Sequence record: NC_054931.1
DNA: 64,000 nucleotides
Direction: 5' to 3' (one strand)
DNA from: Escherichia phage T2
The position numbers and the translations under genes were made by a program. The notes beneath the pieces are model-generated. The model saw only the letters and a program-made list of their open reading frames with translations, searched no databases and was not told the DNA's origin. This document shows positions 58,597-61,389 of this stretch, piece after piece (position 1 is the first letter of the stretch; each line of letters starts with the position of its first letter).

Positions 58597-58746
58597 TTAC
58601 TGCATGACTGTGATAACTGTCATGATAACACGTTGAATTCCGAACGCAAGAAGACCTCCTGCTACGGCTGGAACAACGCCTAAACCCGCCAGTAAAATGC
58701 TACCGGATACTAATGCAGCGCTTGTAATACCTATGAATGGACTCAT
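58597..58746 (-). CDS. small hydrophobic protein (52.1-like)
   Basis: 49-codon ORF MSPFIGITSAALVSGSILLAGLGVV..., start overlaps gene 52 stop (ATGA); below ORF-track cutoff. Confidence 0.45.
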   Translation of the reverse strand: MSPFIGITSAALVSGSILLAGLGVVPAVAGGLLAFGIQRVIMTVITVMQ

Positions 58747-60071
58747 TTGATTTCCTCTAAATCTTTGGTGTATTCGGTAACTACATCAGTAGTTTTCCAA
58801 TATTCGTTTTCTTCTTTTTTAGCTTTAGCTTCTTCAGCAAGTTTCTTCGCTTCATCGGAAGTCATATGAAAAATATTCATTCCAACTAGTTTATCAACAT
58901 AAGAAGAATACATATCGATTTTCGAAAGTTCTTCGGTCAGTTCTTTACGAGTTTTACCCTGTACAACAATTTCACCTGAAATTACTTTCTTAATGAAATG
59001 TGCTTTGGCAAAGGCTAAACGAAAAGCTGACTCAGTTTCTTTAATTTTGTTATCAATTCGTTTTTGGACATAAGTTTTACGAACTTCAACAAAGTCTTTA
59101 ATTAAATCAACTACGTTATCGTAAACTTGCAGCTTTCCTTTCTCATTAATAACCGTAATATTCTGGGAACGACGTTCAATCAGTCCGAAGTCTTTCATAA
59201 TTTTTGCATGGCGTTCTTCTTCGTTATCGCTCAAAGAATATTCTTTACGGAATTTAACTTTGAATCCAAAACCATGCTCACCACAAGCATCATCCCATGT
59301 AATGAAGCCTTTATCTTCAAGTGGGTCTAAAATTTTACTCACGTAAGTTTCACGATCATACTTATACGGAATCTCAGTGATATGCATTTGAGTTCGTGAA
59401 GTAAACTTATATGTTCCGCGAATTTCATATTGACCATCAATCTCAACGACTTCACCACGAAATTCTGGGAATTCTACCTTCGGTTTAGTTACTTTCTTTC
59501 CTTGAAGAGCTTGCAGTACAGCTTTCTTGACAGAAGAAACACTATGAGGAAGAATGTAAGTTGCATAACCAGTTGCAATACCGGAAACGCCATTAAGAAG
59601 AACAGTAGGAATAATAGGCAAATAGAAAGCAGGCGGAATGTGTTCTTTATCTTGATGTACCGGAGCATATTCAGTATCTTTATATACGTTATAGAAATTT
59701 TTACTTACACGAGCAAAAATATAACGACTTGCCGCTGCTTTTTGAACGGTACGAGAACCGAAGTTTCCTTGACCATCTAACAGAGGAAAGTTATTATTCC
59801 AAGTGTTAGCCATCAAAGCTCCCGCATCTTGCGCAGAGTTTTCTCCATGGTGATATCCAAGGTCCGCTACACCACCTGCAATAGAAGCGAGTTTGTGAAA
59901 CTTATCTTTATTCCCTCGTGCCAAATCAAGAGCTCGAGCAATAACAAATCGTTGAACCGGCTTAAATCCATCAATCATATTTGGGATAGCACGATTTTCA
60001 ACCGTGTACATAGCATAAGCCAATGCTTCATTATCAATGATACTTTTTAAATCGCGATTATTCAGTTGCAT
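58743..60071 (-). CDS. 52: DNA topoisomerase II medium subunit gp52
   Basis: 442-aa ORF; size and sequence match T4 gp52. Confidence 0.93.
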   Translation of the reverse strand: MQLNNRDLKSIIDNEALAYAMYTVENRAIPNMIDGFKPVQRFVIARALDLARGNKDKFHKLASIAGGVADLGYHHGENSAQDAGALMANTWNNNFPLLDGQGNFGSRTVQKAAASRYIFARVSKNFYNVYKDTEYAPVHQDKEHIPPAFYLPIIPTVLLNGVSGIATGYATYILPHSVSSVKKAVLQALQGKKVTKPKVEFPEFRGEVVEIDGQYEIRGTYKFTSRTQMHITEIPYKYDRETYVSKILDPLEDKGFITWDDACGEHGFGFKVKFRKEYSLSDNEEERHAKIMKDFGLIERRSQNITVINEKGKLQVYDNVVDLIKDFVEVRKTYVQKRIDNKIKETESAFRLAFAKAHFIKKVISGEIVVQGKTRKELTEELSKIDMYSSYVDKLVGMNIFHMTSDEAKKLAEEAKAKKEENEYWKTTDVVTEYTKDLEEIK

Positions 60072-60075
60072 AAAT

Positions 60076-60216
60076 TTACCATACTAGTGAATGTAGTGCC
60101 ATAATAACATCAGAAATGAAAAGCACGACTTGAATTAATCCGAACATTATTCCGTAATATAACGCTATCAATAAAATAGCAAGGTCTAATGAATAGCCCA
60201 AGATTTTCTTAATCAT
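60076..60216 (-). CDS. small membrane protein
   Basis: 46-codon hydrophobic ORF MIKKILGYSLDLAILLIALYYG... ending 4 nt before gene 52. Confidence 0.4.
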   Translation of the reverse strand: MIKKILGYSLDLAILLIALYYGIMFGLIQVVLFISDVIMALHSLVW

Positions 60217-60364
60217 TAGATAACAACACAAATGTTAAATATGCACACATACCCTGGGCTAAAGCCTGCGAAAACACACTACTGGCATCGATACAGATAG
60301 TTAAAACACATGCTACTATCCAACAAATAAATTAAATAACTCCTAATAATTTTGCGATATTCAT
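60209..60364 (-). pseudogene. ac-like small membrane protein ORF with in-frame TAA at codon 11
   Basis: ATG 60364 with GGAGAA RBS, MNIAKLLGVI, TAA at 60332-60334, then 40 more open hydrophobic codons; 52 codons in total. Confidence 0.4.
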
Positions 60365-60378
60365 AGTGTTCTCCTCAA

Positions 60379-60462
60379 CTATTTTTTAAAACCTAAAATA
60401 CCAAAGTTTTTAAGATTGTTACGATAGAACTGCATCACATGTTCGTTATGGAAATTACTCAT
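60379..60462 (-). CDS. stp: Stp-like peptide (activator of host PrrC anticodon nuclease)
   Basis: 27-codon [30 protein letters not shown]; first 18 residues match T4 Stp as I recall it; ATG overlaps ndd stop. Confidence 0.65.
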
Positions 60463-60920
60463 TAATATGCCTGCAAAACGAATTTAAAATTATCAGCCAA
60501 CATACGGTTCATTTCTTCAAGTGTTTGATACTCAGAATGATGATTACGAGTAAACGCTAAAGCTAACTGTCCTTTTCCAAATCCCGTCGTCAGAGGTTTC
60601 ATCTTAGAAGCAGGCAGATAAAATACTGTGTATGGAACATTGTTATTTGCAATAGTACGTGCAAGCTGAGACCGACGTTGACGAATATGACTTAGAACTG
60701 CACTGAATCCTTGCTTAGAACGCTGATTACCTACATAAAATCGTGCAGACACGCATGGATTACTAAATGGACGACCATCTAATTTACTCACTAAAAAGTA
60801 AAATCCAGGTTTAGATAAAATATCTTTATGCGGAGTTCCTAAAAACCATTCACCACCCTTAATTGTACCAATAACAGTAGCGCCTGCATTATTCAGATCA
60901 GTAACAGTCATATATTTCAT
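60462..60920 (-). CDS. ndd: Ndd nucleoid disruption protein
   Basis: 152 codons from [18 protein letters not shown] with GAGGAAA RBS; recognised as T4 Ndd. Confidence 0.85.
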
Positions 60921-61204: not shown

Positions 61205-61315
61205 TCAGGGAGTATAAAACCCAAATGCAGTTGTTGACCATCCCATCCAATACGGAAAATTTGCACCGATGTAAAACACGAGAATATAAAACCAAATACC
61301 CAGTAAATTCATCAT
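61205..61315 (-). CDS. micro-ORF, predicted small membrane protein
   Basis: 36 codons MMNLLGIWFYILVFYIGANFPYW... Confidence 0.3.
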   Translation of the reverse strand: MMNLLGIWFYILVFYIGANFPYWMGWSTTAFGFYTP

Positions 61316-61389
61316 TTTACACCATTCCAAATTGTTTCAACTACGGATTTTAAACCATTTTGATGAATATCCATTCCGACTACTTCCAT
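61312..61389 (-). CDS. micro-ORF
   Basis: 25 codons, stop overlaps next start (ATGA). Confidence 0.25.
   Translation of the reverse strand: MEVVGMDIHQNGLKSVVETIWNGVK

Follow-up and report, generated by a model that had tools for sequence, protein, structure and literature searches.

Phage T2 carries an ochre codon at position 11 of its ac gene

The ac locus of phage T2

The analysed window comprises 64,000 nt of the Escherichia phage T2 genome (NC_054931.1) and matches positions 138816-163815 of the T2 record AP018813 with 100% identity over its last 25 kb. A chain of small genes on the minus strand of this part includes an interrupted reading frame between stp and gene 52.1 (Table 1). Re-reading and translation of the sequence confirmed the positions that a sequence-only reading had given for this frame, i.e. 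the ATG at 60364, a TAA at 60332-60334 and the terminal TAA at 60209. The ATG is preceded by GAGGAG five bases upstream (AACAC T spacing). Codons 1-10 read MNIAKLLGVI and are followed by TAA as codon 11 (60334-60332), after which 40 further sense codons stay in frame (FICWIVACVLTICIDASSVFSQALAQGMCAYLTFVLLSND) up to the terminal TAA (60211-60209).

Table 1. Coordinates of ac and its neighbours in the window
Feature	Position	Strand	Basis
ac of phage T2, 51 codons plus stop, ochre at codon 11	60209..60364	(-)	50/51 residues identical to T4 Ac; PHROG 2501; synteny
TAA ochre, codon 11 of ac	60332..60334	(-)	alignment with T4, T6 and vB_Eco_EL; allele-specific searches
GAGGAG, Shine-Dalgarno-like, 5' of the ac ATG	60371..60376	(-)	direct sequence reading
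13-codon ac remnant (MCAYLTFVLLSND), called 'ac' in MH751506	60209..60250	(-)	MH751506 locus 871-912
gene 52.1, 46-aa predicted membrane protein	60076..60216	(-)	DUF7396, E=1.4e-21; phrog_3595
stp, 27 aa, anticodon-nuclease activator family, upstream neighbour of ac	60379..60462	(-)	PF08133, E=1.4e-14
gene 52, DNA topoisomerase II medium subunit, 442 aa, downstream neighbour	58743..60071	(-)	
ndd, nucleoid disruption protein, upstream of stp	60462..60920	(-)	

The name ac had been proposed for this frame from its position and size only and is now borne out by homology, as 50 of the 51 residues in the conceptual translation match T4 Ac (NP_049877). The T4 product comprises 51 aa (MNIAKLLGVISFICWIVACVLTICIDASSVFSQALAQGMCAYLTFVLLSND; N-terminal part MNIAKLLGVISFICW, ending SND; NC_000866). 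Genes in T4 are arranged in the order ndd, stp, ac, 52.1, 52 (NC_000866), and the T2 synteny stp-ac-52.1-52 is alike: T2 ac is located downstream of stp, overlaps the start of 52.1 and precedes gene 52, as does its T4 counterpart. The DNA alignment of T4 and T2 ac, which the sequence-only reading had suggested as a check, revealed a single difference in meaning, namely TCA to TAA at codon 11. This codon is TCA (Ser) in T4, T6 and vB_Eco_EL, and the ochre codon corresponds to one C-to-A change in the coding strand at window position 60333. The remaining differences between T2 and T4 ac (n=5) are all synonymous.

Profile searches matched T4 Ac to phrog_2501 (E=2.2e-25) and to no Pfam family. As profile position 1 of PHROG 2501 aligns to Ac residue 1, the start of the family lies upstream of the ochre codon. 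The earlier reservation that T-even homologs might comprise only about 40 codons and start past the stop does not hold: homologs have 51-52 codons and use the same upstream ATG. In T2, the uninterrupted ORF of 51-52 codons from this conserved ATG is broken by the TAA at codon 11. Kyte-Doolittle means over 11 residues in the T2 conceptual translation reach up to 2.8 for residues 6-26 and ~2.0 for residues 38-49, and two hydrophobic helices are discernible at about residues 4-25 and 29-48. ESMFold likewise depicts Ac as two helices (bioRxiv 10.1101/2025.06.30.662393). Ac is a very hydrophobic, probably two-helix inner-membrane protein of 51 residues that renders infected cells acridine-sensitive. 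Judged by sequence, the T2 frame is identified as the ortholog of T4 gene ac. Both genes are alike in their position between stp and 52.1, the ATG, the Shine-Dalgarno sequence and the meaning of 50 of the 51 codons, whereas codon 11 is TCA in T4 and TAA in T2, for which a peptide of only 10 residues is predicted as product.

The adjacent 46-codon ORF (60076-60216), which had been considered as an alternative candidate for ac, is gene 52.1 (Pfam DUF7396) and was rejected as ac; it matches PF24129 over its full length (residues 1-46 versus profile positions 1-46) and is close to T4 gp52.1.

Additional differences were observed among the small genes of this region. T2 Stp is identical to T4 Stp (26 aa, ...LKTKGVFGRQ) at residues 1-18, and the C-terminal tails are unrelated; the T2 tail resides outside the PF08133 match (residues 1-24), and the T6 Stp tail is of the T2 type. 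The spacer between stp and ac also differs between T2 and T4. The ndd.2a ORF (window 61312-61389, minus strand) starts with MEVVG, which is the reference state in LC348380, and E2A and G5* were reported in the 25-codon ndd.2a of the 1972 T2-Hancock stock (PMC8573959 Data Set S1). Polymorphism between T2 stocks extends to ndd.2a as a further small ORF of the early region. Phage vB_Eco_EL (OZ034682; 747-902 and 913-1068) possesses a second, diverged ac paralog between stp and ac, which comprises 51 aa, is 45% identical over 40 residues and also belongs to PHROG 2501. A two-piece ac match of this kind occurs in at least 11 of 60 listed Tequatrovirus records, and T2 is without the second paralog.

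Distribution and age of the ochre allele

The 521-nt region around ac is 100% identical in six records, five of them from Escherichia phage T2 and one from Enterobacteria phage SV76 (classified as Tequatrovirus T2), and shares 93-97% identity with several hundred other Tequatroviruses (564 matched records overall). To trace the allele, a 55-nt megablast query was placed with the changed base in its middle, which forces the 28-base seed to include the site. The TAA version of this query matched only six records (PV958097, MH751506, AP018813, OM339528, PV648363 and PV648364), and the TAA allele was not found with it in ~560 other Tequatrovirus records. An exact 34-mer containing TAA yielded no match in IMG/VR, compared with five for the same 34-mer containing TCA, and when the variable base was left open in a metagenome scan, six of six contigs carried TCA within uninterrupted ORFs (51 or 52 aa). 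Tblastn with T4 Ac retrieved 458 phage records, 456 of them at full length. The six TAA carriers span separate projects and hosts (Japan; E. coli B; BW25113; the SV76 project). The TAA allele is real and specific to the T2 lineage. It is also already visible in public T2 records; the SV76 record has nothing annotated at the ac locus, and MH751506 only the last 13 codons, as 'ac'.

SV76 (OM339528), recorded from sewage in France, is 100% identical to T2 across window positions 39001-64000, the ac ochre included, and its genome has the same size as that of AP018813 (163,826 bp). SV76 may be T2 itself; if not, it is a near-clonal relative. Gene 52 is entered in OM339528 as a misc_feature only.

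Comparison of 11 distinct ac alleles with T4 revealed almost exclusively synonymous differences, the exceptions being one A27V substitution, a frequently found additional Thr codon close to the C-terminus, the T2 stop and two frameshifted alleles. Since nearly all variation in ac is synonymous, this pattern indicates purifying selection on the gene in nature. Apart from one synonymous change and the stop, the T2 allele is identical to that of T6/vB_Eco_EL. As T2 ac is otherwise undecayed, its inactivation looks recent on an evolutionary scale. Some information on its minimal age comes from a T2-Hancock stock of 1972, which differs from LC348380 at 12 positions, none of them near ac (PMC8573959 Data Set S1, Subedi and Barr). 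Thus, if LC348380 has the TAA like AP018813, the ac ochre is older than 1972. The legend to Figure 5 of a recent preprint lists T2 twice (LC348380 and the authors' re-sequenced stock) and uses '*' for a stop codon, and the stop in T2 ac is not discussed in the text (bioRxiv 10.1101/2025.06.30.662393).

Apart from T2, at least two disrupted alleles thus occur among the sampled records, both frameshifted and each found in a single record, while the other sampled alleles are intact. Phage T6 record MH550421 (756-905) has an extra G at ac codon 40 (GTATGTGGTGC), shifting the frame of the last 12 codons and leaving a product of 49 aa. Neither T6 record AP018814 (256-411) nor the T6-Hancock stock of 1972 (variant at 164706 in PMC8573959) has the extra G, which is either stock-specific or an error. 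Salmonella phage pSe_SNUABM_01 (NC_054937, 301-455), in whose record ac is not annotated, has lost one nucleotide from a TTTT run at ac codons 20-21, leading to a premature stop.

Origin of the lesion and its consequences for Ac and gene 52.1

It had been left to resequencing whether a sense codon stands at 60332-60334 in reality. That the TAA reflects a sequencing or assembly error, with TCA at codon 11 of the real T2, could be imagined for a single-base difference, and the lesions of T6 MH550421 (+1 G) and pSe_SNUABM_01 (-1 T within a run of T), each known from one record, may indeed be errors. However, the T2 ochre is a substitution outside any homopolymer and identical in six records of differing project, host and year, which excludes sequencing error for practical purposes; the annotators of MH751506 evidently also saw a truncated gene, as they called the 13-aa remnant only. 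The probability that we assign to an error is therefore close to nil. The ochre would most likely have become fixed in T2 stocks through drift or bottlenecks during stock propagation; alternatively, it may have originated in a wild ancestor of T2. Spontaneous acriflavine-resistant T4 plaques arise at about 2.4e6 per 1e10 (bioRxiv 10.1101/2025.06.30.662393), a frequency implying that ac null mutants are frequent and viable, so that fixation of one of them in a repeatedly bottlenecked stock is unsurprising. Adaptive loss of ac, i.e. selection of the T2 lineage for escape from Ac-mediated sensitisation to intercalators or another natural or laboratory agent, would account for the apparent cost of a gene that confers sensitivity (bioRxiv 10.1101/2025.06.30.662393; PMC13250531) and for independent ac lesions in three lineages. 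Yet two of these three lesions rest on single records, no acridine exposure is known from the history of the T2 stocks, and purifying selection is clear in natural isolates and metagenomes, where ac is nearly always intact and changes are almost entirely synonymous. We thus regard an adaptive loss as unlikely and favour fixation by drift or bottlenecks.

A functional product might nevertheless be made by read-through of the ochre, by reinitiation just past it, e.g. at ATT codon 13, or as a short protein from GTG30 or ATG39. In favour of this, an internal GGAG (codons 8-9) is located 11 nt before codon 13, all 40 codons past the stop have been preserved perfectly, and the remnant starting at ATG39 is the one called 'ac' in MH751506. 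However, recent mutation explains the preservation equally well, ATT is a very poor initiator, and none of the intact homologs has a downstream start. GTG30 and ATG39, the first canonical in-frame restarts, are without a usable, properly spaced Shine-Dalgarno sequence, and their products would lose helix 1, the main hydrophobic one; the ATG39 product would in addition be devoid of Gly38, the substitution of which abolishes T4 function (bioRxiv 10.1101/2025.06.30.662393). The nine T2 tRNAs, i.e. Arg(tct), Asn(gtt), Tyr(gta), Met(cat), Ser(tga), Pro(tgg), Gly(tcc), Leu(taa) and Gln(ttg), include none with a UUA anticodon for reading ochre codons, and tRNA genes are absent from the window; a phage-encoded ochre suppressor was accordingly rejected for the T2 tRNA cluster and the window. 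The context of the ac ochre is TAA-T, which ranks with the most efficient termination contexts in E. coli. An RNA element or structure at the ochre was likewise rejected, as the ac region had no Rfam match and the local fold was no better than that of shuffled sequences (z=-0.02). Hence, T2 ac has neither the suppressor tRNA nor the read-through context nor the structure of programmed stop-codon recoding or suppression. Residual function by any of these routes appears very unlikely. A scan for promoters and terminators gave no excess over shuffled sequences.

Translation from the good Shine-Dalgarno sequence and ATG would stop at the end of MNIAKLLGVI, with the first hydrophobic helix still incomplete. 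Neither of the two full helices, and hence no functional Ac, would be made in T2. We consider it highly probable that T2 is an ac null through a recent TCA-to-TAA change at codon 11 that is fixed in the sequenced stocks of the T2 lineage and absent from the other sampled relatives. In kind, the T2 allele represents an ordinary loss of function, a change of one nucleotide having created a nonsense codon in a known gene that is non-essential.

The lesion may also affect the gene downstream. The ac stop overlaps the start of 52.1 (ATGATTAA, 60216-60209, minus strand), 52.1 is without a Shine-Dalgarno sequence of its own, and its stop is located 4 nt before the ATG of gene 52. The chain of small ORFs ac-52.1-52 therefore looks translationally coupled. 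A stem predicted around the 52.1 start pairs ac codons 35-38 with 52.1 codons 5-8, without statistical support. Since the overlapping start has no Shine-Dalgarno sequence and ribosomes would terminate about 120 nt upstream of it, translation of 52.1 may fall in T2. If true, T2 would be a ready-made hypomorph for the membrane protein gp52.1 as well.

Acridine sensitivity and comparison with other ac alleles

In T4, the G38R substitution as well as deletions of ac lead to acriflavine resistance, and E. coli cells that express ac become sensitised to acriflavine, for which the authors propose that Ac blocks efflux through AcrAB-TolC (bioRxiv 10.1101/2025.06.30.662393). The latter is repeated as an assumption in PMC13250531. 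As loss of ac makes T4 resistant and T2 very probably is an ac null, resistance of T2 to acriflavine is predicted: infected cells would not be sensitised and T2 would plate on acriflavine like T4 delta-ac, under conditions where T4 is blocked. Literature searches for the acriflavine phenotype of T2 found no data and nothing beyond the 2025 preprint, and the contingency-locus preprint does not mention ac.

The older genetics of T2 fits poorly with this prediction. Hessler (1963) and Silver (1967) are said to have treated wild-type T2H as acridine-sensitive and to have isolated and mapped resistant 'pr' mutants. An acridine-sensitive T2H is hard to reconcile with an ac-null wild type, so that either pr is another gene or T2H differs from the sequenced T2. 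One preprint equates T2 'pr' with ac, leaving the interruption of the T2 copy unmentioned. It is a rather doubtful idea that the circulating T2 phages are all natural ac nulls, probably since before 1972, with pr/q not being ac or with reference T2 stemming from a resistant subline. If true, the classical genetics of T2H 'pr' and 'q' would have concerned a gene other than ac, so that the phage would possess another determinant of acridine uptake or efflux, or, alternatively, today's reference T2 would descend from an acridine-resistant subline unlike Hershey's T2H. This discrepancy is the only route by which a finding beyond a stock polymorphism could emerge.

Otherwise, the T2 allele is of practical, not conceptual, value. 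Together with T4 and T6, T2 commonly serves as a reference phage in screens for defence systems and chemical defence, and if T2 is an ac null, a trivial genetic cause would account for unequal sensitivity of T2 and T4 to acriflavine and possibly to further substrates of efflux pumps. T2 and a TAA-to-TCA revertant would form a natural isogenic pair for studying the mechanism of Ac. Moreover, the public annotation of the T2 locus is inconsistent, giving a 13-aa 'ac' or nothing.

Several known systems invite comparison. E. coli AcrZ (49 aa), which binds AcrB, is a small hydrophobic inner-membrane peptide like Ac, and Ac is hypothesised to act on AcrAB-TolC. However, AcrZ has one helix and assists efflux, whereas Ac has two predicted helices and would inhibit it; homology was rejected, as no sequence similarity between Ac and AcrZ was detectable, and the resemblance is one of kind only. 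In T6 MH550421 and pSe_SNUABM_01, ac of a cultured Tequatrovirus has likewise been disrupted independently, but these alleles are single-record frameshifts, whereas the T2 ochre is present in every record of the T2 lineage. A further parallel is provided by the classical and engineered T4 ac mutants (delta-ac, T4del, T4ins and the G38R mutant T4sub), in which a small non-essential gene is inactivated by point mutations or indels (bioRxiv 10.1101/2025.06.30.662393), and the T2 lesion is of the same kind. However, while the T4 alleles are selected laboratory mutants that display acriflavine resistance, the T2 lesion constitutes the 'wild-type' reference state, for which resistance is predicted.
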